Virus record (IMG/VR): IMGVR_UViG_3300005529_000044
Location: 1 to 56,061 of that record
Origin: a virus
Lineage: Duplodnaviria; Caudoviricetes
DNA length: 56,061 nucleotides
Direction: 5' to 3' (one strand)
The notes beneath the pieces were generated by a model. The model was not told the origin of the DNA and searched no databases. It worked only from the letters and a program-made list of their open reading frames with translations. Position 1 is the first letter of the stretch, and the number at the start of each line of letters is the position of its first letter. Below are positions 1 to 55,881 of the stretch, one piece after another. A program made the position numbers and the translations under genes.

Positions 1-934
1 TGGTGGCCGCAACGCCTGTGTCGGTTCGGGTCGATGTCCCGCCGTTGCGAACGGTGCACTGCCAGTTACCAGCGTTCGTCCACCCTCCGTTTGGGTCGAA
101 CTCGAGAAAAACTCCATCGGTCGGATCAGCGGCTGTGACGGAAGCGAATACACCCCAGTAACCCTTGACACTCACGATGGAGGGTAAGTTGAGGCGTGTG
201 CGAAAGTCGAAAGCGTGGAAGTTTGCCGCGGACACGAAATCAGAGAATGCTGTTCCTGCCGCTCCATCCCTCGCTGCTTTGAAAATCGTGCAGTAGTTAC
301 CGCTAGTGGCCCCTGTGTCGTACGATATCCCGGTAGCTTCTCCAGCGCTTGTCACACCCCCACCTCCGCCGCATACTGTTGCGCCGTCCTGCTGGAATAC
401 ACTCCATCCCACCGGATAGAAGTCGGTCTTCACGCCGTCGGAGTAGACGTGGGTGTACTTGGTCATGTCGAGAGGATCGAAACCGCCGCCGCTGGTTGCT
501 GGATTCTCCGGAGCCAGCAGCACGTATGCCGTGCACGTGCCCGAGCAGGGACCTACAACCTGGCCCACCACGTCGCCGCCGCTCGTGGGATAGGCGGTCG
601 AACCCGTATCGTGGCCCTTGCCGGCGGCCGTGCCTGAAATCTGGACGTAATGCTGCGCGGTGGCGGTTCCGTCCATGTCGAGCGGCACCACGCCAACCGA
701 TGCGGCCAGAGACTGGGTGTTCGGTCCGACGCCAGGTTGGCCGCCGATGATCACCCCCTTGAATCCGGCTGTGTCGCCCGCCGACATGATGACGGCATTG
801 CCGGAACTGTCCAGCTTGAAGAGCCGATTGATGGTCGTTCCGGTCGTGGTGGCATTGTTGACCGGATAGCTGATATACAGGCTCTGCGCGAAAGTCACAG
901 CAGCCAGGACCAGAAGCGTCGCCAGTGGTTTCAT
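1..934 (-). CDS. Signal-peptide-bearing fibre/receptor-binding-like protein, 5' part (runs off left edge)
   Basis: My translation: ATG at 934 overlaps the TGA of the upstream gene (ATGA). MKPLATLLVLAAVTFA|QSLYISYPV... stays open to position 1 (...WQCTVRNGGTSTRTDTGVAATT). Absent from the ORF track because it has no stop in the window. Confidence 0.8.
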   Translation of the reverse strand, partial: MKPLATLLVLAAVTFAQSLYISYPVNNATTTGTTINRLFKLDSSGNAVIMSAGDTAGFKGVIIGGQPGVGPNTQSLAASVGVVPLDMDGTATAQHYVQISGTAAGKGHDTGSTAYPTSGGDVVGQVVGPCSGTCTAYVLLAPENPATSGGGFDPLDMTKYTHVYSDGVKTDFYPVGWSVFQQDGATVCGGGGGVTSAGEATGISYDTGATSGNYCTIFKAARDGAAGTAFSDFVSAANFHAFDFRTRLNLPSIVSVKGYWGVFASVTAADPTDGVFLEFDPNGGWTNAGNWQCTVRNGGTSTRTDTGVAAT

Positions 935-2154
935 GATGGCCTCACTAGGGTAAAGTTGTAGGTCGTGCTCGGCGGATCGTTCGCGGTGCCGGTGAGATTG
1001 CAGACCTGTAGGCGGGCGTTTCCGTAGGCCGTGACCTTGGCTTCGGGAAAGACGCCATCCGCCAGTGCCGCCCCGTTCACGTACACGCGGTCGCCTGGAA
1101 ATGCATCCTTGACCGCAACGTCGACGGCTGTGCATGCTCCGTTCGCCGTGCTCGCGATATCGGCGACGGCGGATGCGTAGCCGATGTGGATGACCGAGAG
1201 CCCGTAGGGAACCGAACCGGATCCGGACCCCGCCGGCGCGGAGCAGCCGCTTGAGGCGTCGCTTAAATCCGCGCACCCCATTGTCCCGACCGTAAAGGGG
1301 CTGCCCGGCGAGGTTTGCTTCACCACCTGTGAGGTGCCGCCGGTGGCCGAGAAGTCCGTGGTGCCGCCAGGCAGAGTGAGAACGCTATTGCTGCCGGCAT
1401 TGGCGGCCGGCTTGATCTTGAGGGATCCGCTGTTCGCCCCTGGCAGATCCACGGACCCGCCATTCACCCCGGTCACGACCAGGTTGCCGAGCACCTGCGC
1501 GTTCGTTCCGTCCCAGACAAAGGTCTGATGCGAGCAGGCGTTCGCTGTCGTGTCGATGTCGCCGTGATTCGGGATGGTCGTCGGCCAGACAAAGGTGCGT
1601 CCGCCGGTGGCGTCTTCGCAGACATTGAAGGTCAGTAACTGGCCCGTGGAAGCGCCGGCCAGCGTACTTGAGGTGACGTTACCGGTCAGTGTGATCAGGA
1701 AGGACGTCGCTGTATTGGACGCCGCGGTGAAGGTCGGTGTGGCGCTGTAGGGGACCGTGGTGTACCCGGCCGGATTGCCCGACCCGCCGCCTCCCCCGCT
1801 CATCAGCGTCCAGGTATCGGCCGCCGTGCATCCGTACCAGTTCTGGCCGGCACTTCCGGCCGTGTTGAAAAATACCTCGCCGAGGTCACATTTGGCTGGA
1901 TTCGACGAGCCGATCTTGTGCGAGATGAATTGCCAGGCGTAGGAACTCGCTCCGGTTTGCGTGCACACATACACCTGGCTCGGGTTCGTGGCCGGGTTGT
2001 CGTAGCGCAGGTAGATCGCCCCGCGTTCTCCGGTGCTGTCGCAGGCGGTCGCAGGAGGAGCTCCGGCGCCTTCGAGGTACCGGATCGGCGGCTGGGCGAG
2101 CGCCGGAACTCCAAGTGCCAGCGTCAACCAAAATCGTTGCATGCCACGTTTCAT
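931..2154 (-). CDS. Signal-peptide-bearing tail-fibre-like protein with Cys-paired modules
   Basis: MKRGMQRFWLTLALGVPALA|Q; G/T/S-rich; P..C..GE.FF...GQN.Y.C....W module; ITLTGNVTSSTL...DATGGRTFVWP segment typical of phage fibre domains. Confidence 0.75.
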   Translation of the reverse strand: MKRGMQRFWLTLALGVPALAQPPIRYLEGAGAPPATACDSTGERGAIYLRYDNPATNPSQVYVCTQTGASSYAWQFISHKIGSSNPAKCDLGEVFFNTAGSAGQNWYGCTAADTWTLMSGGGGGSGNPAGYTTVPYSATPTFTAASNTATSFLITLTGNVTSSTLAGASTGQLLTFNVCEDATGGRTFVWPTTIPNHGDIDTTANACSHQTFVWDGTNAQVLGNLVVTGVNGGSVDLPGANSGSLKIKPAANAGSNSVLTLPGGTTDFSATGGTSQVVKQTSPGSPFTVGTMGCADLSDASSGCSAPAGSGSGSVPYGLSVIHIGYASAVADIASTANGACTAVDVAVKDAFPGDRVYVNGAALADGVFPEAKVTAYGNARLQVCNLTGTANDPPSTTYNFTLVRPS

Positions 2155-3350
2155 AGCAGCGGCCTCCAGGCGTAGGTATCGGCCGAATCTTTGAGGCAGA
2201 TCCGGAGCGTGTCGGCGACGCCAGCGCCTCCTTGGACCACCGTATATTTGCCGCGGGCCGAGCTGTCGCAGGTGCCCTCAGCCTGGTTGGCGATCGTCGG
2301 TCCGGTGATCGTCGGAGCGCTTAGGCTCGGCGTTATGATCGTCGGACTGGTCTGAAACAGAGCCGGCCCGGATCCGCTCTCATCGCTCAGAACGCCGGCG
2401 AGCTGGGCCGAGGTCGTCGTAGCGAACACGCTCAGATTGTTGGCGACGTAGGCGATGGTGCCGCCGGTGCCGAAGACGACGGTCGATCCGTCCGTGCCCG
2501 ACAAGGTCACCGTGTTTGAAGCCGTGAAGGTCTTGCCGTCTGCAATGGTGAGCGTCGCCGCGGTGGCCGGAGCGGTGATCGTGACTTTATTGACTGTGGT
2601 CGCCGTGGCCGCTCCGAGCGTCGGTGTCGTGAAACTCGGCGAGACCGCGCGCGCGATCGCGCCTGTGCCTGTGTTGGCCGTCACTGCCACGCCGTTTACC
2701 AGAAAGCTGTTGCCGGCGCCCGCCGTGTCGAACGTCTTGTTGGTCAGTGTATCGGTGGTCGCGCGGCCGACCAGTGTGTCGGTCGTGCTCGGCAGCGTGA
2801 GAGTCCCGGTGTTGACAATCGACCCGATCACCGGAGCGATGAGGGTCTTGTTGGTGAGCGTGTCGGTGGTATTCCGCGCCACGAGCGTGTCGGTGGCGTC
2901 GGGCAGCGTAAGCGCCCGCGTGCCAGTCGGCGTGCCGGTCAGTCCGATGTAGGTCGTTCCGTATATTCCGGTCCCGTAGAGGTATAGGTTGCGGACCGGC
3001 TTGAGCGTGCTGCCGATATCGATGCCGGACTGAAACAACAGCGCTGCGTTGACCGAGGTCGTCGCCAGATTATCGAGGGCCGCCGACGCGCCCCCAGCGC
3101 CGCTATTCAGTTGCTGCGTCCACACGTTCGCCGTGGCGCATTCGTAGAGGTTCTGCCCGGCGGTGGCGTCGGACTTGAAGAACAGTTCTCCCACGCCGCA
3201 GGTGCCAGGCAGGGCGGTCCCCACCTTGGTCGGCCTAGTGCTGATGGCGGCCGATGCATCCACCGCTCCGAGCGCCGAGGCGTCTGAGACGCTGCGCGTC
3301 TGCGCGATGAGCGCGGCCGCACAGAACACGAAGCTGGCAAGAACCTTCAT
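2151..3350 (-). CDS. Signal-peptide-bearing tail fibre protein
   Basis: Start re-called at MKVLASFVFCAAALIA|Q. Two DTLV.R.TTDTLTNKT fibre-shaft repeats; Thr-rich; Cys-paired modules at both ends. Confidence 0.78.
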   Translation of the reverse strand: MKVLASFVFCAAALIAQTRSVSDASALGAVDASAAISTRPTKVGTALPGTCGVGELFFKSDATAGQNLYECATANVWTQQLNSGAGGASAALDNLATTSVNAALLFQSGIDIGSTLKPVRNLYLYGTGIYGTTYIGLTGTPTGTRALTLPDATDTLVARNTTDTLTNKTLIAPVIGSIVNTGTLTLPSTTDTLVGRATTDTLTNKTFDTAGAGNSFLVNGVAVTANTGTGAIARAVSPSFTTPTLGAATATTVNKVTITAPATAATLTIADGKTFTASNTVTLSGTDGSTVVFGTGGTIAYVANNLSVFATTTSAQLAGVLSDESGSGPALFQTSPTIITPSLSAPTITGPTIANQAEGTCDSSARGKYTVVQGGAGVADTLRICLKDSADTYAWRPLL

Positions 3351-3746: not shown

Positions 3747-6700
3747 TCAGAAAGCTGATAAAGCCGCCCGGAAGCGGGCCCCGCCGAGGCAGACCACGAC
3801 GAAGTCGTCCGAGGTCACCGCCAGCCATCCGTCACTGACGCCGGCGCAGACGATGCCCGTGCTCGCTCCGGTCGAGCGCGTATAGAAATTGCCCGTCGAT
3901 CCGATCCACACGTTCGATACCAGGCCGCCCACTGGGGTGTTGAGTGGCCCCAGGAAGTACCGGTTCGAATCGATCACCGCAGTGCCGTTGACGAGGTAGG
4001 GTGCCAGGCCCGTGCCGCCGGCCATATTGATCGATCCGCCGGCGGAGATATCGCCTTGCCCGTTGACGATGAATGCGCCGCCGTTGGCGGTGTAGGCGGT
4101 GGTGAGGCCCGTCACGGTGGAGTTGAAGGCCCCGCCGCTCGCTACGACGTTGACGAACGTGGCGTTGCGGCTCGTATCGATGACGGTCGTACCTCCGACG
4201 CGGTAGGTTCCGCCGTCGAGCGTTCCGGAAAAATCGGCGTCCTGCGTCCATAGCTTCAGCCAGCGGCCGCCCAGATTCGATCCGAGACTGTAGGTCGCGT
4301 TCAGCGACGGCGTGAGCGACCCGGTGACGGTCTGGGAAATGTCCAGCTCCCGGACCCAGGCCTTTCCCCACCGGAAGGCCGAGCTACCGAGAGTGTACAC
4401 GTTGGCGGCCTGTGGGTTCACGTTTCCGTTGAAGTTGAAGAGCGTGGGATTGCCTCCGGAGAGCCGATCGTCCACCTGCAGCACGTAGGTTCCGGAGGAA
4501 TTCCGGAGTCCGACGACGTGAATTACCCCGCCGATCCCTTGTCCCATCGTCCAGTCGAAGAAATCGCTGACGGCGTCCGGCGTGCCGAGTTGGGTTCGTA
4601 GGAACCCGGCATCCACCGTTCCGCCGAAGTTGCCGTTCCGGAAGTATGCCGCGCCCCCGCTGTTCAGGCCGACATCGTTGGTCGTCGCCCCGGCCAGGCT
4701 GGCGGTCGCGCCGAAATTCTGCTGGCTGGTGAAGCTGTTGGTGATGTTCGTCCCGGCGATGATGTAGCTTGCGTTCTGTGGCGTGAGTGTGCGCTCCGTC
4801 GCGGTGCTGAATCCGTCCACCTCGAATCGCAGGAGTTTGGTGGCATCCAGGTTCCCGCGAACGATGTCTGTTGTATCCGGAACCGGCAAGCCGCCGCCGG
4901 CGCCGCATCCGCTACACGTCCCGGTCACGTCCAGGTCCGTCGCATAAATCTTGCGGATCCGCAGCGCGCTCGATCCGATGTCGTACGCATTCGTGGTCTG
5001 CGGCTGGATGTGGCCGAGGAATTGGAATAGCGTCGGGTCACCGGCGTTTCGACGGTCATCGATGTTGAGCACGTACTGGCCGCTCGAATTCCGGAGTCCC
5101 ACCACGTGCTGGACCCCGCCGATCCCCTGACCCATCGTCCAGTCAAAGAAATCCGTGGGCGCATCTGGAGTGCCGAGCTGCGTCCGCAGAAAGGCGGCGT
5201 CGACCGTGCGGCCAAAATTGCCGTCGCGGAAATACTTGCTGGCGAGCGCTTGGCCCACGTCGGCCACGGCGTCTCCGGCCAGGCTCGCAGTGTGCGTTTG
5301 CACCTGCGAAAACGTCTGCGCAATGTCCGTGCCCGCAATGGTGTAGCTGGCATCCTGCGGCGTCAGCGTCCGCGTGGTCGCCGTGGTGAAACCGTCTACC
5401 TCAAACCGCAACAGTTTGGTGGCGTCCGTCGATCCCTTGACCACGCTCGTCGTATCGACCACCGGCAGTCCGCCGCCTGATCCGCAACCGGTACACGTGC
5501 CGTTCACGGTGAGGTTGCCGACGATCAGGTTGCCGTTGCCGCCCATGTTGTCCCCGATCCGCAGCGTGCTGGCGGCGCTGCGAAACAATTGAGTGTCAGC
5601 CACCGGGAACGAGGCGAGATTCACGCCGCTATACCACAGGATGTAGGCATCCGAACTCATGTTGTAAGTCAGCGCCTGCGTGAGCGTCTTGACGGAGCCG
5701 CCGTTCACCGTATAGAGGCCGCCGCCCGCAAAGTAGGCCGTGCGGGTGCCCGCGTTATCGAGGAAGTCGACCACGGAATTGCCGGACTGGCTGGCGCCGT
5801 CCTGGATGGTGAGCGACGTAACCCCCGTGCCGGCCGTTTGATTCTTGAGCTTGAGAGAGCTGACCGCGTAGTTGGTCGAGGACAGGAAAACGTTGTTGTT
5901 CGCGTCGAGCGTCCACATGCTCGAGCCTCCTCCGCCCGTGCCTTTTGATTCGATCTGAACCAGTCCGGTAAACGGCGGATTGAAGCTGAAGACGAGGTCG
6001 CCTGACGTATTCCGCGTGTAAGAGCACAGCACGGCCAGCCTGGGCGTGGCGCTGTCGAAGCAATATGCTACGGGCAGCGTTCCCTGCCCGTGCGTAAGCG
6101 CCAACACGGTGAGCGACGTAGCCGAGGTGACCGTGGTCGTGTAGGGCGTGCCGGTGCCGCCGCCGCCCGAGCCGCATGTTTGAATCGACAGGTTTCCGGC
6201 GCCGTCGTCCGTCCAGCACCCTGCTTGGCTTTGGGAGGGCAACTTCCAGGTGACGTCGGCCGTCGCGGAATTGGGCGCGGAGAATCCGACATAATGCGCG
6301 GTCGCCGCCTGGTCCCGGAATCGCAGGTAGCCCGTGACGATCTCGTTTCCGGTCACCTGCAATTTTTGGCCGGTGGTGGGCGCTCCGCCCACTCCGACGT
6401 TTCCGGCAGAGTAGTAGATGTCGCTGCCCGAGATCACCCAGGGCTGCGTCCCGCCGCCACCCCCGCCGCCCGAACCGGACACGTTATCGACGGTCCAGAC
6501 GACGGCGCCCTGCGCGGTTCGCAGCTCGAGCTTATAGAGCGAACTTGACGAGAGCCAGATATCGGCGCGGCCCGCTCCGTCGAGGATGACCGGATTTGAA
6601 TTTGCCACGCTGGCACTCGAACTGGTGTAGGTGGCAAGCGGCGTGGTCGTGCCCGCCACGTAGGAGTAGAGCAAGCCTCCCACGATCGGGTTGCCGTTGT

Positions 6701-6815
6701 TATCGAGCCCGGTGAATTTGGGAGGCGGCGCGAGCGTGGCCTGGCCGGAGACGGCCGCCGCGAGCAGAATGGCTAGTCCGGCGGTGCGGGCGAGCCTGAA
6801 AAGCTCTTTTCTCAC
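3747..6815 (-). CDS. Main tail fibre (1022 aa) with podophage virion-attachment N-domain preceded by a signal peptide
   Basis: MRKELFRLARTAGLAILLAAAVSG|QATLAPPPKFTGLDNNGNPIVGGLLYSYVAGTTTPLATY...NPVILDGAGRADIWL...YKLEL...VWTVDNV. Gly linkers, internal duplication, and P..N.TY.LGS...RW..LW fibre repeats. Confidence 0.88.
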   Translation of the reverse strand: MRKELFRLARTAGLAILLAAAVSGQATLAPPPKFTGLDNNGNPIVGGLLYSYVAGTTTPLATYTSSSASVANSNPVILDGAGRADIWLSSSSLYKLELRTAQGAVVWTVDNVSGSGGGGGGGTQPWVISGSDIYYSAGNVGVGGAPTTGQKLQVTGNEIVTGYLRFRDQAATAHYVGFSAPNSATADVTWKLPSQSQAGCWTDDGAGNLSIQTCGSGGGGTGTPYTTTVTSATSLTVLALTHGQGTLPVAYCFDSATPRLAVLCSYTRNTSGDLVFSFNPPFTGLVQIESKGTGGGGSSMWTLDANNNVFLSSTNYAVSSLKLKNQTAGTGVTSLTIQDGASQSGNSVVDFLDNAGTRTAYFAGGGLYTVNGGSVKTLTQALTYNMSSDAYILWYSGVNLASFPVADTQLFRSAASTLRIGDNMGGNGNLIVGNLTVNGTCTGCGSGGGLPVVDTTSVVKGSTDATKLLRFEVDGFTTATTRTLTPQDASYTIAGTDIAQTFSQVQTHTASLAGDAVADVGQALASKYFRDGNFGRTVDAAFLRTQLGTPDAPTDFFDWTMGQGIGGVQHVVGLRNSSGQYVLNIDDRRNAGDPTLFQFLGHIQPQTTNAYDIGSSALRIRKIYATDLDVTGTCSGCGAGGGLPVPDTTDIVRGNLDATKLLRFEVDGFSTATERTLTPQNASYIIAGTNITNSFTSQQNFGATASLAGATTNDVGLNSGGAAYFRNGNFGGTVDAGFLRTQLGTPDAVSDFFDWTMGQGIGGVIHVVGLRNSSGTYVLQVDDRLSGGNPTLFNFNGNVNPQAANVYTLGSSAFRWGKAWVRELDISQTVTGSLTPSLNATYSLGSNLGGRWLKLWTQDADFSGTLDGGTYRVGGTTVIDTSRNATFVNVVASGGAFNSTVTGLTTAYTANGGAFIVNGQGDISAGGSINMAGGTGLAPYLVNGTAVIDSNRYFLGPLNTPVGGLVSNVWIGSTGNFYTRSTGASTGIVCAGVSDGWLAVTSDDFVVVCLGGARFRAALSAF
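4320..5477 (-). repeat. Tandem duplication of ~579 nt (193 aa) inside the tail fibre
   Basis: GGGLPV.DTT..V.G..DATKLLRFEVDGF.TAT.RTLTPQ.ASY...FLRTQLGTPDA..DFFDWTMGQGIGGV.HVVGLRNSSG occurs twice; anchors at 5461-5477 and 4882-4898. Confidence 0.92.
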
Positions 6816-6910: not shown

Positions 6911-7720
6911 TCATCTTCCAACTCCGACGAGCGACAGGCCTCCGCTGGGCGGGCCGGCCGGCGGGGCCGCCTCGTCGACTGCGAGAAAGACTGAGGCGCA
7001 ATCGACGGCGGTGCCCGTCGGATCGCTGGTGGCCGTGGTTCCCGTTAAGATCCGAAACTCGCCGCAGGCGTCCATGTTGCTGGCCGCGCCGCCCGCGTTC
7101 GATCCGTTACACGTGCTCGAGGTGAAATTCGTGGTCGCCGTCCACGTTCCCCCCGTGGCTCGCTCGAGCGCCGTTGCCCGCAGGAACAGATGCTCGGAGT
7201 TGGTGAGGCTGCCTACCGTCATCGATCCCGGATCTGCGGCGTCGTTGGCGAGATCCTGCGGCGTGCCGACGATCGAAACAACGTTGCCAGAAGTGATCTG
7301 GAATTCCTTCACGACGATGCCGCGCGCCGTGAGCGAGGAATGGTTTAGCGTGATGGTGCTCGTGCCGGAAGTAAGCTGCGTCGCGAGCTTGGAATAGAAC
7401 AGGCACACGGTCGCCCCGCCGGCCGCCGCGCCCTGGCCGTTGGTGAATTCGCGTAGCTTGGTCCAGGTGTTCGAAGCCGAGTCCTGGACCGATGTGCAAT
7501 CGGTGCTGTTTCCGTCCGTCGTCTGGACGTTGTCCATGCCCGCCCACAAGATCGCGACCTTGCCGGCCTCCATATTTTCGGTTGCGACGGTGCATGTTAG
7601 CGACGTGCCGGCGGTCTTCGAATTGGCCGTGCAAGTTCCAGCGTTACCCGCCCCAGTTCCCCAAGCCGCATGTGCCGGGATCGCAATGATGGCTACAAGC
7701 GCCAGGGACAGTCTTTTCAC
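6911..7720 (-). CDS. Signal-peptide-bearing beta-rich virion accessory/fibre-tip-like protein
   Basis: GTG start at 7720 after GGAG. MKRLSLALVAIIAIPAHA|AW; several Cys; C-terminal PPAGPPSGGLSLVGVGR. Confidence 0.7.
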   Translation of the reverse strand: MKRLSLALVAIIAIPAHAAWGTGAGNAGTCTANSKTAGTSLTCTVATENMEAGKVAILWAGMDNVQTTDGNSTDCTSVQDSASNTWTKLREFTNGQGAAAGGATVCLFYSKLATQLTSGTSTITLNHSSLTARGIVVKEFQITSGNVVSIVGTPQDLANDAADPGSMTVGSLTNSEHLFLRATALERATGGTWTATTNFTSSTCNGSNAGGAASNMDACGEFRILTGTTATSDPTGTAVDCASVFLAVDEAAPPAGPPSGGLSLVGVGR

Positions 7721-7737: not shown

Positions 7738-8028
7738 TTACGTGTGGCACTCGGGGTGACATCGGCAGGCGCCCTTGCGGCAGTACACTTTGCACTTCGG
7801 GCTCTCGCCGCCAGTTCCGTCGGGCCCGCACTTGGTATCGCAGATCCCGCAGTTTTTCTTGTAGCCGAAACCGTCAGTCGCTTGGCACCAGCGCGGCTGG
7901 CCGTCATGCTGCGGATTGCCGTCGCCTTCGTAAGGCGGGATCGGGCGATCGCCCTGGCCCTGGCCGAACAGGAGCACGGCCCAGAGTAAAGCTGCGCCTG
8001 CGACTTTACATTTGCGTATAAGAGACAT
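7738..8028 (-). CDS. Small exported Cys-rich protein
   Basis: Hydrophobic leader ...AALLWAVLLFG|Q; 9 Cys in the last 50 aa. Confidence 0.65.
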   Translation of the reverse strand: MSLIRKCKVAGAALLWAVLLFGQGQGDRPIPPYEGDGNPQHDGQPRWCQATDGFGYKKNCGICDTKCGPDGTGGESPKCKVYCRKGACRCHPECHT

Positions 8029-9823
8029 GGATGTGCGCGTTTACGGCGGCTGAGTTAGTGAAGCAAAGCGCCTGGCTGGCGGGCGTTGAGTAGACTGTCC
8101 CGAGGCCGCTGCCTTCGACGATGCCTGATTGGGCGATCAGGTCCCAGGCCGGGCTCAGGCTCGTGGTGCCGGTCCCGCAGTTAGACCCGGTTCCGTATTT
8201 CATCGTGACCGTGGTGGTTCCGTTGGCCATCACGGAGAGCTCGCAAATGTAGATCGCGGTCGATCCGGATGCCGCGACGATTTGCGTCGTCGTCGCCGTC
8301 GTCATGTCGAGAACAGCCGTCGAGCGGCAGGCGATCACGCCCTGTAGGTTCCCGGCGGTGAGCGCGCCGAAATACGTGGCGTTCGCCGGCACCGCGGATC
8401 CGGTTGCCCCGTGGCCGAAGTTGGCGATCGCGGAGTTATCGGAGGCAAGCACCACGCGCTGGACTCCCGTTCCGGCCGTGCCGTTGCCCATCGTGACCGC
8501 GACGCCATTCATCTGGGCCACATTGGTTGAAATGTTCGAAGCGGCCGAGGTCTTGATGTTGACATCGAGCGCCGAGGCCGTCGAGGTGAGCAGATTGCCC
8601 GATCCGTCCGCGGTGCGGACGACGCCGATTACCTTTGTGGTTTCCGCGCCGAGCGTGGCGTTGACATTCCAGGTTCCGCCTTGATTTGCCGTCACTGTGC
8701 CGCTGACCGGCTGCGTTGCTGCGGAGCCGTCGACCTTTAGGGCTCCGCCCACGCTCACGGTTGCGGCGTTTCCGCCCTGGCTGATCGTCGCAAGCCAGGG
8801 CGTGGTGTTGGCGGTGTTACCAGGCTGCACGGTCCAGGTGCCGCCCTGGTTCGAAGTCACCGTCCCCGAGATTGGCTGCGTCACGCCCGAACCATCGACC
8901 TTAAGGGGGATCATCGAGGCGATGCCCTGCACCGTGATCACATCAGCGCTCGCGACGCCTGCGGTTCCGAGCGCTGGCTGTTTCGCTGCGGTCGCCGCGC
9001 CGGTCGGAAGCGGAAGGCTTGCGGCCGATACCGGCTGGGTTGCCTGCCAGAAGGTTCCGCTCACGGGCTGCGTTACTCCTGAGCCGTCCACCTTCACGGG
9101 CGTCATCCCAGTGATGCCCTGCACACTCACGACGTTGGCGTTCGGCGTTCCCGCCGGGCCGGTGGGCGTGCCGCCCGAGCCTGCGGCCACGTTCACCAGC
9201 AGATTTCCGGAACCATCTACCTTCACCGGCTGCATATTGACGCCGTCGGTTGCCCCGATCGGAGTGCCGCTCGAAGGAAACGCCGATCCAAACGATGGAC
9301 CACTCGATGCGCTGCACCCGGTGACGCAGTTGACATAGGCCGGGTTCGCGGAGCTGGTTCCGACGACAGGCCCGATCACCTGGCCCTGGGCATTCGCCGC
9401 GATTACGAACAGGACTGCGAGCGGCGAGGCGAGGCGCAGGAATCGACCGAGCCGCATCCAGCGGCCCGACGCTACTTTCGCAGCCTTGAGCTTTAGCCGG
9501 TCGTTTTCTTCCCGCGCCTGGAGCAGTTCGTGGGCGAGCGCCCGGCGGATCCGCTCCTGGCGCGCGCGCTGCTCTTCGGCCAGCTTCTGGTGCGAGGTGA
9601 AGGCGGTGATGTGCGCGTCCAGAATCCGGCCGAGAATATCCAGGCGATCCTGGGCGTGCCGGTGGTCGGAGCGGTATTGCTCGATCGAGCGGGTGTGCAG
9701 ATCTAGCGTAGTCTCGAGCAGCTCCAGGTGCCGCCGATAGTCGGCGTCGAGGCGCGAGATCGCCTGCTCCCACTCCTGGACGTGGGCGAGGTCAAGTGGC
9801 GGCTTGGTGATGGATACGGCCAT
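8006..9823 (-). CDS. Fibre-like protein: N-terminal coiled coil, internal signal/TM segment, then repeat-rich shaft
   Basis: About 120 aa of charged helix, then MRLGRFLRLASPLAVLFVIAANA|QGQ, KVDGSG(V/A)TQP(V/I)SGT repeats and a C-terminal beta domain with Cys. Confidence 0.72.
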   Translation of the reverse strand: MAVSITKPPLDLAHVQEWEQAISRLDADYRRHLELLETTLDLHTRSIEQYRSDHRHAQDRLDILGRILDAHITAFTSHQKLAEEQRARQERIRRALAHELLQAREENDRLKLKAAKVASGRWMRLGRFLRLASPLAVLFVIAANAQGQVIGPVVGTSSANPAYVNCVTGCSASSGPSFGSAFPSSGTPIGATDGVNMQPVKVDGSGNLLVNVAAGSGGTPTGPAGTPNANVVSVQGITGMTPVKVDGSGVTQPVSGTFWQATQPVSAASLPLPTGAATAAKQPALGTAGVASADVITVQGIASMIPLKVDGSGVTQPISGTVTSNQGGTWTVQPGNTANTTPWLATISQGGNAATVSVGGALKVDGSAATQPVSGTVTANQGGTWNVNATLGAETTKVIGVVRTADGSGNLLTSTASALDVNIKTSAASNISTNVAQMNGVAVTMGNGTAGTGVQRVVLASDNSAIANFGHGATGSAVPANATYFGALTAGNLQGVIACRSTAVLDMTTATTTQIVAASGSTAIYICELSVMANGTTTVTMKYGTGSNCGTGTTSLSPAWDLIAQSGIVEGSGLGTVYSTPASQALCFTNSAAVNAHIHVSYTQM

Positions 9824-22914: not shown

Positions 22915-23469
22915 CTACTTCTCCTTCTTGGCGGCCTTCTGAGCTTCCTTCAGTCTGGCCTCGAGCGCGGCGTGCGCGGTGCGGAGCTCGTCGAGTTCGG
23001 CCCCCTGCTCCTGGTGTGCCTGCTGGAGCTTGTCGTGCTCCGCCTGGAGCGCGGCATGGTCGGCCTGGAGTTGCGCGTGCTGTTCCGACAGCTCTTTCCA
23101 GGACTTGTCGAACTGTGCAGCCTGTTCGGCAAGCGCAGGTGACTTCGCCGAGCCAGAGGCCAGTCGTTCATCGGCGATCTCGGGTTCGTTCGCCCAGGCT
23201 TCGACCTGGCGCTCGTGCTCCTCGGCATCCTTGACGATTTTGGTCTGGCCGCGCGGCCCCGTCAGGAATTTCGGGTACTCCTGCTTGACCGGGCGCGGCC
23301 TGCTGTTGGGCGGCGATCCCGGCACTTCCGCGACGTCGGCCTTGGGCACGGCCTCGATCTTGTCGCCATGCTGGGCGTACAGCTTGGTATGCTCGATCCG
23401 GTCCTGGACCAGCCGGGCTGTGCCATCCGGCATCGTGAGCCATTTCGGATAGTGGTGGAACGTTCCCAT
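22915..23469 (-). CDS. Head-completion-region protein with two YPK(W/F)LT.P.G motifs and a coiled coil
   Basis: HYPKWLTMPDG and EYPKFLTGPRG; heptad-repeat C-terminus. Confidence 0.7.
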   Translation of the reverse strand: MGTFHHYPKWLTMPDGTARLVQDRIEHTKLYAQHGDKIEAVPKADVAEVPGSPPNSRPRPVKQEYPKFLTGPRGQTKIVKDAEEHERQVEAWANEPEIADERLASGSAKSPALAEQAAQFDKSWKELSEQHAQLQADHAALQAEHDKLQQAHQEQGAELDELRTAHAALEARLKEAQKAAKKEK

Positions 23470-23487: not shown

Positions 23488-23907
23488 CTAGTTCCGCTCA
23501 TCGTAGGACACGATGATCTTATCGCCCGTATTCGAACCGCCAACCCAGAAGCGCTGAAGATCGATGCCGCCATTGGTCGCAGCCGTCGTTCCCGGGCCGC
23601 CGTCGGTGTAGGTGCCGCCGGGAGCGGTCGCCGTCGCCGGGGCGAGCTCGGCGGTGAGCTGGCCGGAAACGGTTGGATCCGGGGTAACTCCCACCGGAAT
23701 ACCGTCCATCACGTAGCCGCGGCCGGTGCCGCCCGTTACCATCTGCACGAAGATCCGGTTGGCAATCTTCGGCTGCGCCGAAATCTGGACGGGCGTCCCG
23801 GCAGTGATGGTGATCGTGATATTGACACGCCGCGCAAAGCCCGGTGCTGCGCAAATACAAAGGGCCGCCGCGAGCGCAAGCAGGCGGCGGCCGGTCACTC
23901 CGAACAT
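23488..23907 (-). CDS. Signal-peptide-bearing small beta protein, putative capsid decoration
   Basis: MFGVTGRRLLALAAALCICAAPGFA|RRV; second gene after the coat gene; start uncertain (23898-23922). Confidence 0.65.
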   Translation of the reverse strand: MFGVTGRRLLALAAALCICAAPGFARRVNITITITAGTPVQISAQPKIANRIFVQMVTGGTGRGYVMDGIPVGVTPDPTVSGQLTAELAPATATAPGGTYTDGGPGTTAATNGGIDLQRFWVGGSNTGDKIIVSYDERN

Positions 23908-23936
23908 AGGACGGAACTCCATCGTTTTTGAGGAAG

Positions 23937-24659
23937 CTAGTACGACGGATTCCACTTCGTGCCGTCCCAGCATTCAAGAAGCGCCTTGTTGACGACCGAA
24001 GTGGTAGCGAGCGAAATGTTGCCGCTCGTTCCGGTGCTGCCCAGACCGTCAGGAATCAGCACCAGGCAGCCGCCGGGTTGCCAGCCGGCTGGCACGGTGA
24101 TCGTATTGACCGCCGTGGTGCCGGTGACATGGAACATCGTGCCGGTGGCCGCGATGGTCGAAGCCGAGGCGACGGCCGAACCGAGCACGGCACCCGGCGC
24201 TCCTCCGACGCCTGAGGCGGTGAGCACGAACTGCCCGCCCAGGCAATCGTACTTATTCCCGCTCGGGAACACGATCACCGGGACGTACGCCAGATTGCCG
24301 CGCGTGCAACTTCCCGAAGGTTCGGCGCGGTTGATGTTGCTGGTAAATGCCGCTGGGAAGCCCCGGTACACGGTCGCGCCGGATAGATGGCCGGCGGCGG
24401 CTGTCCCGTTGCGCCCGCGGTTCACGGTTACGGTGGTGCCACTCACGGTCAGGACCTGCATCAACTCGCGGTCGATCAGCAGCAGGACCTGCGACTGGGC
24501 GGTTTGCGAGGTGATGCCGGTGGCCGAGGCGACGGCGAAGGTAGTTTGGCTCGCCGTGATCGCGGCCGACAAGGTCGTTGTGCCGATCGCGGTTTGGCCC
24601 GAGACAAGGCCTACTGCCAGCAGCAGCGCGGCCAGGATGGTCATCAGTTTCGATTTCAT
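23937..24659 (-). CDS. Signal-peptide-bearing putative capsid decoration/head-fibre protein
   Basis: AGGAGG RBS; MKSKLMTILAALLLAVGLVSG|QT. TTLSAAI...IDRELM.V..V.G..VTV.RG..GT.AA.H..GA.V motif seen in phage structural proteins; immediately after the coat gene. Confidence 0.75.
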   Translation of the reverse strand: MKSKLMTILAALLLAVGLVSGQTAIGTTTLSAAITASQTTFAVASATGITSQTAQSQVLLLIDRELMQVLTVSGTTVTVNRGRNGTAAAGHLSGATVYRGFPAAFTSNINRAEPSGSCTRGNLAYVPVIVFPSGNKYDCLGGQFVLTASGVGGAPGAVLGSAVASASTIAATGTMFHVTGTTAVNTITVPAGWQPGGCLVLIPDGLGSTGTSGNISLATTSVVNKALLECWDGTKWNPSY

Positions 24660-24696
24660 GGTCTTCAAATCCTCCTGTGTTCCTCGTGTTCCCCAC

Positions 24697-25953
24697 TTAG
24701 GCCGCGATCCGGACGCACCACTCCGGACGGAGCACCGCCTCGCCGTGGAGGATCTCCAGGCGGGTCTTGTAGCTGCCGTCGTTGATGTCCCAGTCCCGCG
24801 TGTAGCGCATCGAGATACCGGTTTCCCTATCGGCGATCGAGCTCGCTTCATCCAACCCGTTCGGTTTTTCGAGGAAGCCCATCACGAGCGTGAGCGCGTC
24901 GCGGTGGAACGCGAGGCCCTGCGGGCTGTCCACGTCCGTGATTGTGGCGAAGTTCGCCGTGCCGACGTTGAACACCAGCACGGGAGCGTTGTCGGCGGGA
25001 GCCGCGGTCACGGTCTGGTAGGCGCCGTCTACGATGATCGGCGGCGAAACCGGAATGGCCATGGCGCCACCACCGTCGGCCACCTGGTCGACCAGGACGA
25101 CGAAGTCCTGCAAGCGCCGGGTGTTCTGGCGCGACAGCGGATTCACCGCGTTGACGCCGGTGAACTGGATCACATCCCCACGCTTGAGCGTCGAGGTCCC
25201 TGCGGTCCAGCCGTCGGTGTTGACGGTCTGGGTCCAGTTGCCGTCGGCATCCTGCGTCGCGATCTGATTGGCGCCGTTGACGAGCGGGTTGCCGGTCACG
25301 TGGCCCACCGTGTGCACCGCGATGTTCTGGCTCATGAACCAGTCAAAGCCCGAGGCGCGGTACATCTCGCCCTCTTCATACTGCTTGGCGATGGTCGGCT
25401 GGGGATTAAAGAGGGTCTGCAACGCCGGAACGATGATTTCTTCCATCTCCGGGTTGTAGACCATCGAGCGGCGCATGTCCGGCGGAGCCGAGGAATCGTG
25501 CAGGACGCGCTTGGCCTTCATGTAGGTGGCAAGCGAGTTGGGCGTCGTGCCAGGCGTGCCCACGCACTGGTAGACGTCCTTGTACAGGTTGCACAGTGCG
25601 CGATCGACGTCGTTGCCGAGCTGGGTGGCCTGCGGCCCGATGATGTCTTCGCGGAGCCGCTCGATTGAGAGCTGGAGATCGATATCGTCGATCTGCAAGC
25701 CGATGTTGAGCGGGTGGTTCAGCCGGACGGGGACCGTCGACTGAAAAATGTCCTGGATATTCAACGCCCGCTGTTCCCTCGAAATGAAGCGTTGCGGGCG
25801 GCGCACCATAATGACGTCGCCGATCTTATTCCCCTCTTTCCCAAACTTCGAGTCGTAGGAACGGTTGACCTGGCGCACCATCTTGGTGCTGTTGATGAAT
25901 TCCGCCATGGCCGCCAGGTTTACGGCGGTCGGCGTAATAATGCGATTCGCCAT
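24697..25953 (-). CDS. Major capsid protein, P22 coat family
   Basis: MAN.IIT, NRSYD..F...G.KIGD.I.VR.P, GF..FMSQN, LAFHRDA and R.EILHG...LRPEW motifs. Confidence 0.95.
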   Translation of the reverse strand: MANRIITPTAVNLAAMAEFINSTKMVRQVNRSYDSKFGKEGNKIGDVIMVRRPQRFISREQRALNIQDIFQSTVPVRLNHPLNIGLQIDDIDLQLSIERLREDIIGPQATQLGNDVDRALCNLYKDVYQCVGTPGTTPNSLATYMKAKRVLHDSSAPPDMRRSMVYNPEMEEIIVPALQTLFNPQPTIAKQYEEGEMYRASGFDWFMSQNIAVHTVGHVTGNPLVNGANQIATQDADGNWTQTVNTDGWTAGTSTLKRGDVIQFTGVNAVNPLSRQNTRRLQDFVVLVDQVADGGGAMAIPVSPPIIVDGAYQTVTAAPADNAPVLVFNVGTANFATITDVDSPQGLAFHRDALTLVMGFLEKPNGLDEASSIADRETGISMRYTRDWDINDGSYKTRLEILHGEAVLRPEWCVRIAA

Positions 25954-26032: not shown

Positions 26033-27163
26033 CTAAAAGCGCCGGCGCGGATGGGCCTTCATGAAGTCGCTCACGGGCGAGTCTCCCGAGGCCATCTTGT
26101 CGTAGTCGATCGCGGCGCCGCTCACGCCGGAGCTCGAAGCCCCAACGGTTGCCGGCGGCGGTGCGGCCGGTTTCGCTTTTGACTTTCCTGGCGTCTCGGC
26201 CTGGCGCGTCTCGGCGCCTGCCTGCTTGCCAGTTCCATTACGGTCGGTCGCTGCCGCCTTTTCGCCGGCTTTACCAGCGGCATCGGTGGTGCGGTCGCCC
26301 GCTTTCTTGAAGAACGTCGGCAGAAGCTTTTCCATCTCCCGGCGCGCCCGCCGTTCGGCTACCGCCCGTTGCGCCTCGGTTGCGGTCTCCGGCAGGTCGG
26401 TCGCCAGGAAAATGCGCTCGCTTTCCTCGATGTGATGCTTCGCCAGCTCGTAGGCCAAGCCGGCCGAATCTTCGACACTCAGGATGACGCTCGCCATGGC
26501 GGTTGAAAGCAGCGCCTCCGGATTTGCAACTACGTCGTCGTAGTCCTCAAACCGTTCGCGCGCCTCCTCCTGCTGTTCCTGCCAGCGCTTGCCGCGAGCC
26601 TTGGCCGATTCGGTCTGCTCGGCCTGCTTCTTCTCGCTCGCGGTTTTGACTTCCCGTTCGTGACTCTTCCGGTCCGCTTCCGCTAAAATCCAGTCCGAAA
26701 AGGCCTGGTCGTAGGCAGCGTCGGGATCCTCGGCGTTCAGGAAATCGGCGCGCTTCGGGCGCGGTTTGGGTTGGGCAGCAGCCGTTTCGGTCTTTGCCGG
26801 CGCGGCTGCGCCTGCTGTTAACTCTGCGACTTTCGCTTGGAGCTCATCGACCTGCGCCTGAAGGCGCTGGTTTTTGAGCTTTTCGCGCTTGCTTCCCGGA
26901 ACCCTGTTCCGCTCCCGGTCTTCTGCTCCACTGGCCTCCGCGCCCTTTGACGCATCGGCGGAACTGCCGCCGTCCTTGCCGCCTTCGGCCGGCTTCCCAT
27001 CGGCGGCCGCGGTTTTGTTGCCAGCTTCCCCGCCTGTGGTCTCGGCCGCGCCTTCGGAACCCGGCGTTTCCTCCTGGCCCTCAAGCTCGGTGACTTCGTA
27101 ACCAGCCTCTGCCAGCGCTGCTTTCGCTACGTCCGGCGGATCGCTCGTCTGGATGTGCAGCAT
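26033..27163 (-). CDS. Scaffolding protein
   Basis: Lies between portal and coat; acidic low-complexity N-terminus, KPRPKRADF..YDQA..DW motif, LAYELAK; start 27163 or 27172. Confidence 0.85.
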   Translation of the reverse strand: MLHIQTSDPPDVAKAALAEAGYEVTELEGQEETPGSEGAAETTGGEAGNKTAAADGKPAEGGKDGGSSADASKGAEASGAEDRERNRVPGSKREKLKNQRLQAQVDELQAKVAELTAGAAAPAKTETAAAQPKPRPKRADFLNAEDPDAAYDQAFSDWILAEADRKSHEREVKTASEKKQAEQTESAKARGKRWQEQQEEARERFEDYDDVVANPEALLSTAMASVILSVEDSAGLAYELAKHHIEESERIFLATDLPETATEAQRAVAERRARREMEKLLPTFFKKAGDRTTDAAGKAGEKAAATDRNGTGKQAGAETRQAETPGKSKAKPAAPPPATVGASSSGVSGAAIDYDKMASGDSPVSDFMKAHPRRRF

Positions 27164-27171
27164 CGGAAACA

Positions 27172-27201
27172 ATCATACGCTCAAATGTTGCGAGCCTGCA
27201 A
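27172..27201 (-). promoter_or_regulatory. Sigma70-like promoter before the scaffold gene
   Basis: TTGCAG-18 nt-TATGAT in the short portal/scaffold gap, 8 nt upstream of ATG 27163. Confidence 0.45.
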
Positions 27202-53087: not shown

Positions 53088-53555
53088 TTAGGTGGCGGGC
53101 GGCGGTTCCTTCGCTGTGGCTTCTTTGATCGCCGCGGCAGTTTCGGCGGTTTCCGGTTTGCCGTTGAAGATTGATCCGAGCTTGTCGAGCGCCGCCTTAG
53201 CCACCGCAGGCACTTTTCCGCCGTACTTGGTGTAGTTGTCCGTGATCGAGGTGAACTCGTAGAAGCACAGCATGTAGGCCACCGGCTTGTGTACGTCAAA
53301 GCCGATGTCGGTTGAAAAGTAATGGTCGACGATGCCGGCCCCCGCCAGATAGACCAAGGTCCGGCACTTCAGGCTGATGCGTTTTACCATCGCCTGGCGT
53401 GTGAATTTATCCTGCGAGCGCGATCCTAAAAACTCCATCGCCAAGTCGAGCAGGATCAAAATCAGCAAGGCCTGCTCCGGGTGGGGAACCTTGGCCCACC
53501 AGGCGGCCAGCGTTGCTCCCGTGATGCCGGCCCATTTGAACGTCTCGTCTTTCAT
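53088..53555 (-). CDS. Holin (phage holin 4_1-like)
   Basis: Start re-called at MKDET. TM segments, LLD, K, VD and E..SI.DN....G.KVP motifs. Confidence 0.82.
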   Translation of the reverse strand: MKDETFKWAGITGATLAAWWAKVPHPEQALLILILLDLAMEFLGSRSQDKFTRQAMVKRISLKCRTLVYLAGAGIVDHYFSTDIGFDVHKPVAYMLCFYEFTSITDNYTKYGGKVPAVAKAALDKLGSIFNGKPETAETAAAIKEATAKEPPPAT

Positions 53556-53583
53556 TCGGCTGCTCCCGTTTTGTTCCATCGCT

Positions 53584-55881
53584 CTAATGCACTCGTCCGT
53601 TGTTGATGCGCGCCCCGCCCCCTGTGCGGCTGCCCGTATGGCCGCTGGTTGAAGAATCGACTGTGAGATTGCAATTGAGTGGTCCGTTCGGCGCGCTTCC
53701 GATCGCGTTGGTGGCCTGGAAGGCGAAGGTCGCAAGCCCAGGAACGGTCGGCGTGCCGCTGATATTCCCCGTCGAACTGTTCAAAGTCAGGCCGGTGGGC
53801 AGGGAGCCCGACGTGATCGACCAGGTGATGGGCGTGTCGCCCGATGCCGCCAGCGTGTAAGAATAAGCCGCCGCCTGGGTTCCGTTGGGCAGCGGGCAGC
53901 TTGTCGTGATCGTCGGAACAAATCCCCCTAACCTCCACCCCAGGTAGTTGTCGGCTCCGCCGATTCCGGCCACTTGGCCAACTGTCTTACCCAGGAACGC
54001 GTACACATTCATCGGTCCTGCGTAGTTGGTGAATCGATTGCACGGCGGAGGAACCATTCCGCCGAAACATCCGGGGAGCACGTTACCGTAGTCGGCCTCG
54101 TACCCATCGCAGCCTGGGCCGCTGCACGGCATGGAGCCTCCTGGTCCGTCGGCTGGCCCTCCGTAAGCGGCAGAGAATATCTCGTCACCGCGCGTTTTCC
54201 ACGTTGCGTTGCCAGTGGTCTTGTACAGCCAGCCCATGATCCAGATCGCGTCGAAATTACCGATGCGGTTTGTGTAACCTGATTGCAGTCCCGAACCGAA
54301 CGGGACGCAGAAAGACGCAGAGTTGTGACACGTACTTGAGGCTGGAAGGGAACGAGCTATTTGAGGGCTGTCGAAGTTAATAGACGTGTACGATCCTGCG
54401 GATACGTTGCCCATGTAGTTCTTGGTGGTTTGCTCCGCGCCGCCCCACGCTGACGTGAATGTTCCCTGCGTCTGGCTGGCGCAGGATTGGAGCTTCGCGG
54501 TCCACGTCGAGCCAGAGGAGTTCTCGAAGCCGATGTAGTCTGTGCCGTTACAGTTGAAATCAGTTTGTAGGGTCACTCCACCGGAGCATGTGAACGAGGT
54601 CGAGCCAGAGGTGACCGTGCAGGTGCCTCCGTGATTCACGAGTCCGGTTGCGTTCAATCCATCGTTCGGGTGATCCGCGTCGTAGTAGATCTGCCTTCCC
54701 GTAGGATCGTATCCGGAGCTGTAGACCCAGTTTCCGCTCGCAACGAGGGCCGACAGAACCGAGGCGGCGAGCGTGGTGTTGTTGCATCCTGCCGCAGTCG
54801 TGTCGTTCAGAACGTCATAAGCCCGCGCGAGTCCCTGATTGAGAGCGAAGACTCTCCAGGGAGATTCGCCTGGCATCGCATACGAGAATGGACCGTTCTT
54901 TTCGTTCCACCTGCCACTGGCGTCCTGGACCGAGAGCGCATCGTTGACCAGCGTTGTCACCATCGAGCAGTAGTTGGTGTGGCGCGTCGCGTCGGAGTCC
55001 GCACGCGCTCCCACTGCCGCCCAGATCAGACAGTAGCCAGGTTCACGGTTGTCTTGACCGTCTAGGCGGCAAGGACCTACGTTGGAGAGAAAGTTTAGGG
55101 AGTACACCTCTCCGTACAGAGCGGCAAGACGTGCCGTGCCCTGAGCTCCTCCGAGGTCAAGCGCACGAACGTATTGAGAGACGAGTGAGTACCACCGAGG
55201 TGGGTTCAGACCCTGGGGTGCTCCTGACTGAAGTGCCCATTCCCACCAGGTATCTGTGAAGTTCCGGAACGCAGTGAGATACGCAGGGTCTCCCGTGCGA
55301 AGGTACACGCGGTAGATTGCCAGCGCCGGATCGTAGAAGTTCCAAGAGGCTCCGCCGTTTTGTCCGCAGAGGCCCCAGTGCCCGCAACTGTACACCAGCA
55401 ATCCAGTCCCGTATGTCGGGTCGGTGATATCCACTACGCAGCGGGCGCAAGTATAAACGGTGAGGCCGCTCAGTGGACTGGAGTTCCAGACGGTGTTGCT
55501 CAGGCCGCTGCTGTTCGTGGTCGTGATTACGTTGCCGGAGACGCTCGCGACGCCCATGATAAGCCGCGTGTTTGCTGCCCCGTCCGGACCGTTCCAGGCG
55601 ACCAGGATTGTGTCGCCAGGATTCACCCCTGGGGCCGTTGTCCCAGTGAGCGTGATCGGGATCACGTTGTTGAGGGTATACGTGCCAGGCAGCGCCGAGC
55701 CAGTAAGGGGGACGTAGTTCATTGAGTAGTTGACGATCGCATCGACGTCGCCTTTGACCGCGAGGTCATAAGCAGCCCATGGACCCGAGTTCATCGGTAC
55801 GACCGGGCCGACGATATCGCTAAGTGCGTCAGCGCACGCTCCGCATGGTAGAAGAGCTAGGATCGCGACCAAGCGACGCAT
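53584..55881 (-). CDS. Exported glycan-active-like enzyme/receptor-binding protein with C-terminal He_PIG (Ig-like) domain
   Basis: [17 protein letters not shown]|D; aromatic helical repeats ([20 protein letters not shown]) suggest an alpha/alpha toroid; many Cys; [27 protein letters not shown]. Confidence 0.72.

Follow-up and report, generated by a model that had tools for sequence, protein, structure and literature searches.

Why the two genes directly behind the coat gene of a tailed phage should both begin with an export leader is the question raised by a virus record of 56,061 bases (IMG/VR record IMGVR_UViG_3300005529_000044, ~63% G+C; this whole stretch is here called the window), the minus strand of which holds the late module of a P22-type podovirus. 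The two genes, here named A and B, had been proposed in the first-pass annotation to be exported and, from their position, to encode decoration proteins of the capsid. The comparisons speak clearly for export. The destination of the proteins is less certain: they are best explained as accessory proteins of the virion surface that would be oxidatively folded in the periplasm and reach the particles only at lysis, a reading to which we assign a probability of about 0.45. The features concerned are the following.

24697..25953, minus strand: major capsid (coat) protein of P22 type, 418 amino acids (aa); PF11651 P22_CoatProtein, E 2.4e-40; phrog_283, E 1.5e-75
24671..24676, minus strand: ribosome-binding site AGGAGG of gene A, with an 11-nucleotide (nt) spacer to the ATG at 24659
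23937..24659, minus strand: gene A, preprotein of 240 aa (P0001); the stop codon ends at 23937
24597..24659, minus strand: leader of A, residues 1-21; predicted cleavage between VSG and Q; helix at residues 2-15 in the model
24348..24596, minus strand: N-terminal beta-barrel of A, residues 22-104, with phrog_1101 and structure matches
23940..24347, minus strand: linker and C-terminal beta-sandwich of A, residues 105-240, with the Cys pairs 118/139 and 198/230
23488..23907, minus strand: gene B, preprotein of 139 aa (P0002); the stop codon ends at 23488
23833..23907, minus strand: leader of B, residues 1-25; predicted cleavage between GFA and R
23491..23832, minus strand: mature jelly roll of B, residues 26-139, with the conserved motif TAELAPATATAPGG

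The genes are closely spaced, with gaps of 37 nt between the coat gene and A, 29 nt between A and B, and 18 nt before the next gene. Both A and B have canonical leaders of the type recognised by the general secretory (Sec) pathway, in agreement with the prediction that the two genes after the capsid gene are exported. Also the details given for the gene starting at 24659 hold: the AGGAGG ribosome-binding site, a leader ending before Q and four Cys, at residues 118, 139, 198 and 230. Its N-terminus reads MKSKLMTILAALLLAVGLVSG followed by QT; in the leader, MKSK supplies the Lys of the n-region and is followed by a hydrophobic stretch of ~15 residues, and positions -3 and -1 are Val and Gly. Gene B has GGAG 9 nt before its ATG at 23907 and begins with MFGVTGRRLLALAAALCICAAPGFA followed by RRVN; the leader claimed for it is present, laid out as ..GRR, LLALAAALCICAA and PGFA, the cleavage being predicted between GFA and R. 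The first in-frame starts after the ATG of B, Val54 and Met56, lie within the fold and not close to the mature N-terminus, and the leader is therefore necessarily part of the open reading frame (ORF). The mature part of B in the window includes no Cys.

The leader calls were made with our own scripts for hydropathy and the (-3,-1) rule, and by comparison with homologues. A charged n-region, a hydrophobic core and small residues at -3 and -1, as expected of Sec and signal peptidase I substrates, were found in both leaders, while the same hydropathy scan detected no leader-like N-terminus in the portal, scaffold, coat, adaptor, head-closure and ejection genes. Two other leader types were tried and rejected. 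The lipobox [LVI][ASTVI][GAS]C of lipoproteins processed by signal peptidase II was absent from both leaders on inspection of the sequences: that of A has no Cys, and Cys17 and Cys19 of B, preceded by A-A-L and L-C-I, do not fit. A twin-arginine (Tat) leader does not suit A, which has no RR; B has T-G-R-R-L-L-A, but RR occurs in the first 12 residues of only 5 of the 37 leaders of its family.

The search with A found 164 homologues at E ≤ 0.001. The leader is present in 28 of the 29 homologues of a 29-row alignment and in 53 rows of a larger set, or 53 of 67 after two N-terminally cut gene calls (P0037 and P0048, left also off the tree) had been dropped; the larger alignment holds 69 proteins, namely the query and 68 of the 120 hits listed, hits to the N-terminal domain only being mostly omitted. 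Position -1 is occupied by A, G, S or T and position +1 by Gln in every one of the 53 leader rows, 29 of which have A-x-A before the Gln. The leaderless homologues start with MA..TTLS a few residues from the predicted mature N-terminus, and the leader forms a separable module that is missing from them. In the 69 rows the Cys of A vary only as pairs: columns 118 and 139 are both Cys in 53 rows and neither in 16, columns 198 and 230 both in 17 and neither in 52, and mixed states do not occur. The pattern suggests disulfides 118-139 and 198-230. An even number of mature Cys, at least two, was found in 52 of the 53 leader rows and in 1 of the 14 leaderless ones (Fisher 7.6e-12, a value that, like the corresponding one for B, treats related sequences as independent). 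A tree built from the mature sequences, in which Cys had been masked, requires a minimum of three changes of the leader state. The Cys state goes along with the leader in ~2.8 of 3 independent contrasts and never against it, although the sign test with these three pairs is underpowered (p = 0.25).

The profile of B was searched against 1.84 billion representatives and gave 210 proteins at E ≤ 0.001. Here the leader is the minority state, present in 37 of the 150 aligned rows and lacking from 113. The alignment omits 12 of 167 proteins, of which P0194 and P0271 are long and P0210, P0237, P0245, P0249, P0256, P0264, P0268, P0272, P0276 and P0280 short or odd; also P0284-P0289 are outside the 150 rows, and P0280, P0284 and P0286 have leaders. 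The leaderless homologues begin with M-R-[IV]-N exactly at the end of the leader of B in the window. Even mature Cys numbers of at least two were found in 27 of the 37 leader rows and 14 of the 113 leaderless rows (Fisher 8.5e-12). The Cys pairs, present in leader rows only, occupy at least five different column pairs (76/121, 89/98, 67/insert, 104/114 and 67/78), which argues for their repeated independent acquisition. The B tree is poorly resolved, and a test with the four pairs on supported branches is powerless (p = 0.5). When P0002 was used alone, no B relative was found in the viral contigs, and the 10-row alignment A5 gave no match in the genome contigs. Longer, fused forms of B were not found in the search either, which is weak evidence; only P0194 and P0271 were seen, both from the profile search. 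P0194, which may be a fused gene call, starts with an RRM domain (PF00076, E 2.8e-16), after which comes a hydrophobic segment resembling a leader.

The nearest Atlas clusters for the A and B families consist of viruses by 72-100%, and both families look almost purely viral, not host-derived. Export appears well supported, and highly probable, for both A and B; it was read as real because the leaders are conserved, the cleavage pattern is kept, the leaderless relatives start at the mature end and the Cys are coupled with the leader. That the leaders would give access to the periplasm and to oxidative folding can be robustly inferred from the same comparisons.

Gene neighbourhoods were compared in 50 viral-contig loci, many of them near-duplicates. 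A homologue of A starts at most 400 nt from the end of the coat gene in 41 loci; 31 of these post-coat genes are leader-bearing, and their mature Cys are even in number in every case; ten are leaderless in the same slot, with no mature Cys in six, two in three and three in one. A remains beside the coat gene across relatives in which the coat proteins share 25-43% identity. The loci fetched with B are unbiased for A, since B was the query: every one of them with a coat gene has A following it, A being leader-bearing and B leaderless, and the order coat-A-(0-2 genes)-B recurs in L008-L015. Counts of leader-like ORFs per locus (48 of 293 in loci with an A leader, 4 of 79 in others) were unreliable, as they missed the A leaders of L002, L003, L030 and L033, and were left unused. 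The presence of leaderless, Cys-poor homologues in the same slot suggests a shared function that tolerates either compartment, and hence one acting at or after lysis, outside the cell.

The AlphaFold2 model of A (mean predicted local distance difference test, pLDDT, 93; predicted template modelling score 0.83) consists of the leader helix, a beta-barrel and a C-terminal beta-sandwich. Residues 27-99 match phrog_1101, a tail protein (E 1.3e-10), and over residues 23-183 there is a match to phrog_23837 'virion structural protein' that begins at position 11 of the profile (E 7.2e-6). When searched against PDB sequences, the profile of A matched 8vjh_A (E 4.3e-7), and in structural comparison with VIA-align the barrel matched 9in6_M (Z 11.2, root-mean-square deviation 2.3, 77 residues aligned), 8rk3_o (Z 10.7), 8vjh_A (Z 10.0) and 8jov_1 (Z 10.0). 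The matched proteins include a 398-residue chain of a VP1 capsid entry (Z 11.2), JBD30 J (Z 10.7, 26% identity), a tail-tip chain of phage Chi (Z 10.0), a portal-tail chain of GP4 (Z 10.0) and the tail tube of Mystique (Z 9.7), and more weakly the coat I-domains of P22 (Z 6.5) and CUS-3 (Z 5.8). Residues 156-240 matched 6o38_A (Z 6.2) and 7rej_A (Z 5.6). The C-terminal domain is swapped among relatives while the barrel is retained, giving proteins of 320-358 aa in L002-L004, L008-L013 and L045. According to the model, A is a phage surface beta-barrel with an exchangeable C-terminal domain, the modular pattern of virion fibres.

The AlphaFold2 model of B (mean pLDDT 87.7) is a single jelly roll of seven strands. 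In VIA-align, subunits of endospore appendages were the best matches (Z 8.4 with 7a02_A, and 7.9), followed by the trimeric cement protein of KHP40, 7dou_4 (Z 7.1, root-mean-square deviation 3.7, 102 of 124 residues aligned), the turret of HFTV1 (Z 6.9) and capsid proteins of satellite viruses (~Z 7); all except the best are below 8, where a match may mean a common fold only. Carbohydrate-binding modules and PPC domains were weakly matched by the fold. Neither Pfam nor PHROG gave a match for B, and the matches in BFVD were uncharacterised small proteins only. The comparison with known decoration trimers that had been suggested for these genes thus gave a relevant match in KHP40, but one below Z 8 and with no sequence relation. 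When mature B was submitted to complex prediction in three copies, it scored 0.47, the highest value among three controls being 0.00. In the calibration, from which the B job differed in using its own alignment and three copies, 20 of 30 proteins solved as one-chain pairs and 1 of 23 solved as single chains attained this score. The runs agreed in at least 85% of the contacts, with a partner pLDDT of at least 82, and the predicted interface involves the most conserved motif of the family, TAELAPATATAPGG. Self-association of B is thereby predicted. The proposal that the slot encodes decoration proteins was supported to the extent that B is modelled as a jelly roll comparable to trimeric cement proteins in size and fold, but a full-length relative was not found in any isolate or virion proteome.

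The events most consistent with these results would be as follows. A and B would be translated from the late operon directly after the coat protein, as gene order and spacing suggest, and their leaders would carry them over the inner membrane, where signal peptidase I would cut after VSG and GFA, as the sequences and the homologues indicate. A would then fold in the oxidising periplasm with the disulfides 118-139 and 198-230, as the covariation implies, and B would form a homo-oligomer through the conserved TAELAPATATAPGG loop, as predicted by the complex model. Since DNA-filled capsids are built in the cytoplasm, the exported proteins would meet them only once the holin lesion and lysis merge the compartments; the holin lesions of lambda are large enough for capsids to pass. 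A and B may then attach to the exterior of completed particles, where B would act as a jelly roll of cement type and A as a small fibre or adhesin. The outside of the particle is the most economical target because of the coat-adjacent position, the virus restriction, the surface-type folds and the modularity of A. The gain from the leader would be oxidative folding for proteins that must survive outside the cell.

Several observations weigh against this destination, in addition to the dependence among sequences behind the Fisher values, the few contrasts in the trees and the B matches below Z 8. Foldseek found nothing for B in PDB at E ≤ 0.001, and the B profile had no match among PDB chain sequences at E ≤ 1. 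The barrel of A is, judged from the model, a widespread surface module, and a match to it does not imply capsid binding. No full-length relative of A or B was found in 50,697 phage records, and none in a cultured phage; the barrel of A alone was matched in these records, as a module of cyanophage gp15-like and Streptomyces phage proteins. Since mature B of the window has no Cys, its leader is left unexplained by oxidative folding, and A and B are no obligate exported pair, because B is leaderless beside leader-bearing A. Furthermore, the contexts of some relatives would fit exported glycan-directed proteins at least as well as cement. In L007 a leader-bearing B follows head-tail joining genes and lies beside a leader-bearing fibre-like gene, not the coat gene, and P0194 (861 aa), with its leader-like segment, ends in the B jelly roll (residues 755-858). 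Within a cluster of head genes in L009, the A and B homologues are separated by the gene of a leader-bearing GH27 alpha-galactosidase of 740 aa (5772-7994; PF16499, E 5.9e-39). L020, in which A is leaderless, has a leader-bearing 872-aa ORF (12287-14905) just before the head-closure gene, and the N-terminus of this ORF is 47% identical to that of the 1022-aa leader ORF of the window.

These contexts favour a close rival, possible but somewhat less probable than the virion surface: A and B would be exported but never part of the virion. Produced late and kept in the periplasm, where the leader would again serve oxidative folding, they would be freed at lysis to bind or mask host glycans or receptors on cell debris and nearby cells, or to aid glycan-degrading enzymes in releasing the progeny. 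All the evidence for export applies to it equally, the weak likeness of the B fold to carbohydrate-binding modules and PPC domains suits it, as does a weak match of the A profile to the fucose-binding lectin 6htn_A (E 5.1e-4, profile positions 201-236), and at least eight further leader ORFs form a secretome-like block beside the holin. It is less easily reconciled with the fixed position of A at the coat gene and with the leaderless, Cys-free forms that fill the same slot, since it is not evident why a head module should encode a factor for the host surface in a cytoplasmic form; also the near restriction of both families to viruses and the 113 leaderless B rows among 150 speak against it.

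Improbable, in our judgement, is that A and B are lysogenic-conversion morons, expressed from the prophage and acting in the host envelope in superinfection exclusion or adhesion. The phage is temperate, having an integrase gene, and exported prophage proteins are found inside late regions, as lambda Lom and Bor and T5 Llp show. On the other hand, a scan limited to the sigma-70 consensus found no promoter-like or terminator-like site on the coding minus strand between 21000 and 27500, where the gaps are those of 37, 29 and 18 nt, the post-coat slot is kept in 41 of the 50 loci, whereas morons are patchy, and leaderless homologues occupy the same slot. Similarly improbable is that the hydrophobic N-termini are no export signals but a membrane tether, a buried arm or a start-codon artefact, with the proteins joining the capsid in the cytoplasm: cement proteins do often use N-terminal arms, but B has no alternative start near its mature end, the ATG of A is preceded by AGGAGG, the n-h-c layout and the -3/-1/+1 pattern are conserved while the leaderless relatives simply lack the segment, and the joint occurrence of leader and paired Cys, seen in two families that are unrelated, could be explained only with difficulty if no oxidising compartment were involved.

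Further leader-bearing ORFs of the window are given here with the holin.

1..934, minus strand: leader ORF, MKPLATLLVLAAVTFAQ before a predicted cleavage at S; leaves the window
931..2154, minus strand: leader ORF, 407 aa, 10 Cys
2151..3350, minus strand: leader ORF, 399 aa; residues 236-345 match phrog_6002 'virion structural protein'
3747..6815, minus strand: leader ORF, 1022 aa, 10 Cys in close pairs
6911..7720, minus strand: leader ORF, 269 aa
7738-8028, minus strand: leader ORF
8006..9457, minus strand: leader ORF, 483 aa, 6 mature Cys
53088..53735, minus strand: holin, PF05105
53584..55881, minus strand: leader ORF, 765 aa, with a He_PIG Ig-like domain; upstream neighbour of the holin

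At least eight consecutive leader ORFs thus lie between the ejection genes and the holin, their leaders ending in A/G-Q and their mature parts mostly with paired Cys, although the ORF at 53584-55881 adjoins the others only if the ends of the record join. Two more leader-like ORFs are present in the lysis region. The scaffold, the 284-aa ejection protein and the neighbouring proteins of 435 and 1780 aa (the latter at 10183-15525) are free of Cys, and 2 are present in the 719 aa of the portal, whereas the leader ORFs mostly have Cys in close pairs. The leaders had been taken as a genome-wide strategy rather than one captured host cassette, and the rejection of a single cassette is borne out, because leaders occur at several late loci and the A and B families look viral. 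Tentatively, and with less confidence than for A and B by themselves, the idea may be extended to the clade: A, sometimes B, and the fibre-like or glycosidase-like proteins of the leader block would be routed through Sec, disulfide-bonded and attached after mixing by the holin, so that the virion is finished outside the cytoplasm. If true, part of morphogenesis in Caudoviricetes would take place outside the cytoplasm, in a step with repeated gains and losses during evolution.

The remaining features of the late module and of the window are listed below.

29622-31178, minus strand: large terminase, PF03237/PF17289
27206-29365, minus strand: portal, 719 aa; PF16510, E 2.3e-127
26033-27172, minus strand: scaffold, phrog_8865
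after the coat gene, minus strand: gene A, then gene B, then the gene for a 184-aa coiled-coil protein
22915..23469, minus strand: the 184-aa gene, without leader and with a coiled-coil C-terminus, between B and the adaptor genes
past the 184-aa gene, minus strand: two adaptor-like genes, phrog_12985
further on, minus strand: head closure, phrog_578, E 5.1e-100
18076-19560: leaderless ORF of 494 aa, between the head-closure and DUF2824 genes
further along the late module, minus strand: DUF2824 gene
end of the module as listed, minus strand: ejection protein (phrog_598) and the 1780-aa protein
37798-39096: integrase, PF00589, E 1.8e-17
elsewhere in the window: ParB-like gene

The phage is a temperate, P22-type podovirus. 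Among cultured phages, Xanthomonas phage PBR31 has the closest coat protein (36% identity); the gene that follows the coat gene there, orf023, is unrelated to B (hhalign probability 1.7%). An acidobacterial, diderm host is likely, because a metagenome-assembled genome of Bryobacteraceae is the source of the only named relative of A. The leaderless ORF at 18076-19560 is, judged by eye from its sequence, a candidate tailspike; if this is right, infectivity need not depend on exported parts. No terminal repeat was found at the window ends (1 and 56061). A frame of 494 aa is open over the junction of the two ends. The minus-strand ORF leaving position 1 gains ~69 more open codons once the ends are joined, and its stop then falls near the start of the 765-aa gene (55881). 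An open frame over the joined ends would be compatible with a circularly permuted complete genome, the evidence for circularity being suggestive, not conclusive.

Some further observations were made in the window and the compared loci. The 184-aa protein has two copies of the motif YPK(W/F)LT...(V/I)..D..EH before its coiled coil; its gene is kept in L012, L014, L015 and L045 and has no family assignment. Genes resembling Cpn10/GroES (PF00166, E 9.2e-8 and 2.2e-13) lie beside the B homologue in the head module of L012 (8397-9017) and L015 (7581-7979), and also of L008 (8674-9081) and L009 (8876-9448); the window has no GroES counterpart at that position, and in PBR31 a GroES gene is annotated upstream of the terminase. 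In L014 (1244-2878) and L015 (5188-6822) the coat match is broken after residue 45 by ~390 nt of unmatched sequence, which may be an intron, an intein or another insert. L009 also includes an ORF of 175 aa (8371-8898) with the Tat-like N-terminus MKINRRQLFG...; a short stretch of this ORF, residues 77-119, matches the beginning of the P22 portal family (PF16510, E 6.1e-10). Inside the structural module of L020 are two small Cys/His-rich ORFs (8685-9173 and 11742-12350) that by eye have the look of homing endonucleases.

The assembly of tailed phages is treated as purely cytoplasmic, and in annotation a signal peptide is commonly read as speaking against a role in the virion. Phage proteins that are exported are well known, and so are accessory proteins of the capsid. 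What the A and B families would add is that two unrelated, virus-restricted families of the head module switch repeatedly between a leaderless, Cys-poor state and one with leader and paired Cys, which is the signature of relocation to the periplasm. If the exported forms end on the particle, the composition of the virion would depend on the lysis step, intracellular and released particles would differ, and surface proteins stabilised by disulfides would be open to phages of diderm hosts. In the literature search no report was found of a capsid decoration or cement protein with a Sec leader in a tailed phage, which does not prove absence, and neither a conserved post-coat family with leader and covarying disulfides nor repeated coupling of leader and Cys in two head-module families was found described. 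The RcGTA paper was rejected as a precedent, as signal peptides appear only in its methods.

Virion proteins pass through Sec in the filamentous phages (pVIII and pIII), and the tails of the Acidianus two-tailed virus continue to grow extracellularly. Both are conceptual precedents only, being unrelated to the present phage in lineage and mechanism and without homology to A or B, and we know of no comparable extracytoplasmic virion step in Caudoviricetes. Closer at hand are the cement proteins of podophages, although to our knowledge none of those of KHP30/KHP40, GP4, Pam1 and A1002 has a Sec-type leader. Trimeric jelly-roll cement proteins of ~140 aa are described at the capsomer interfaces of the podophages A1002, KHP30, Pam1 and GP4 (PMC13730344). 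Like KHP30 gp15/KHP40, GP4 gp1, Pam1 gp6 and A1002 gp49, mature B would be a single jelly roll, of 113 residues, is predicted to self-associate and is encoded two genes after the coat gene; unlike them, it is without sequence relation to any solved chain and has a Sec-type leader.

Protein A is better compared with capsid fibres and spikes, such as the head fibre of phi29 and Hoc of T4. For the capsid spike of Pa223 (gp52), host adhesion has been proposed (10.1101/2025.06.11.659172). A resembles these three in being a small, non-essential-looking protein of surface type with a variable distal domain; it differs from the Pa223 spike in its architecture, in the predicted cleavable leader and in the covarying Cys pairs, and the Foldseek match between the two is weak (9ny6_C, E 7.5e-2). 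Residues 22-104 match the beta-barrel module of tail-tip J proteins, tail tubes and coat insertion domains, but in those proteins the module is internal to virion proteins made in the cytoplasm, whereas in A it comes first after the signal peptide. Phage proteins with Sec leaders that act in the envelope include secreted and signal-anchor-release endolysins, spanins, T4 Spackle, T5 Llp, and lambda Lom and Bor. PBR31 gp40 is a signal-peptide esterase encoded near the lysis genes (PMC10975493). The exported endolysins, spanins, Spackle, Llp, Lom and Bor serve lysis, exclusion or conversion and are encoded outside the head module; A, unlike them, is a constant neighbour of the coat gene, and leaderless homologues fill this slot in some relatives.

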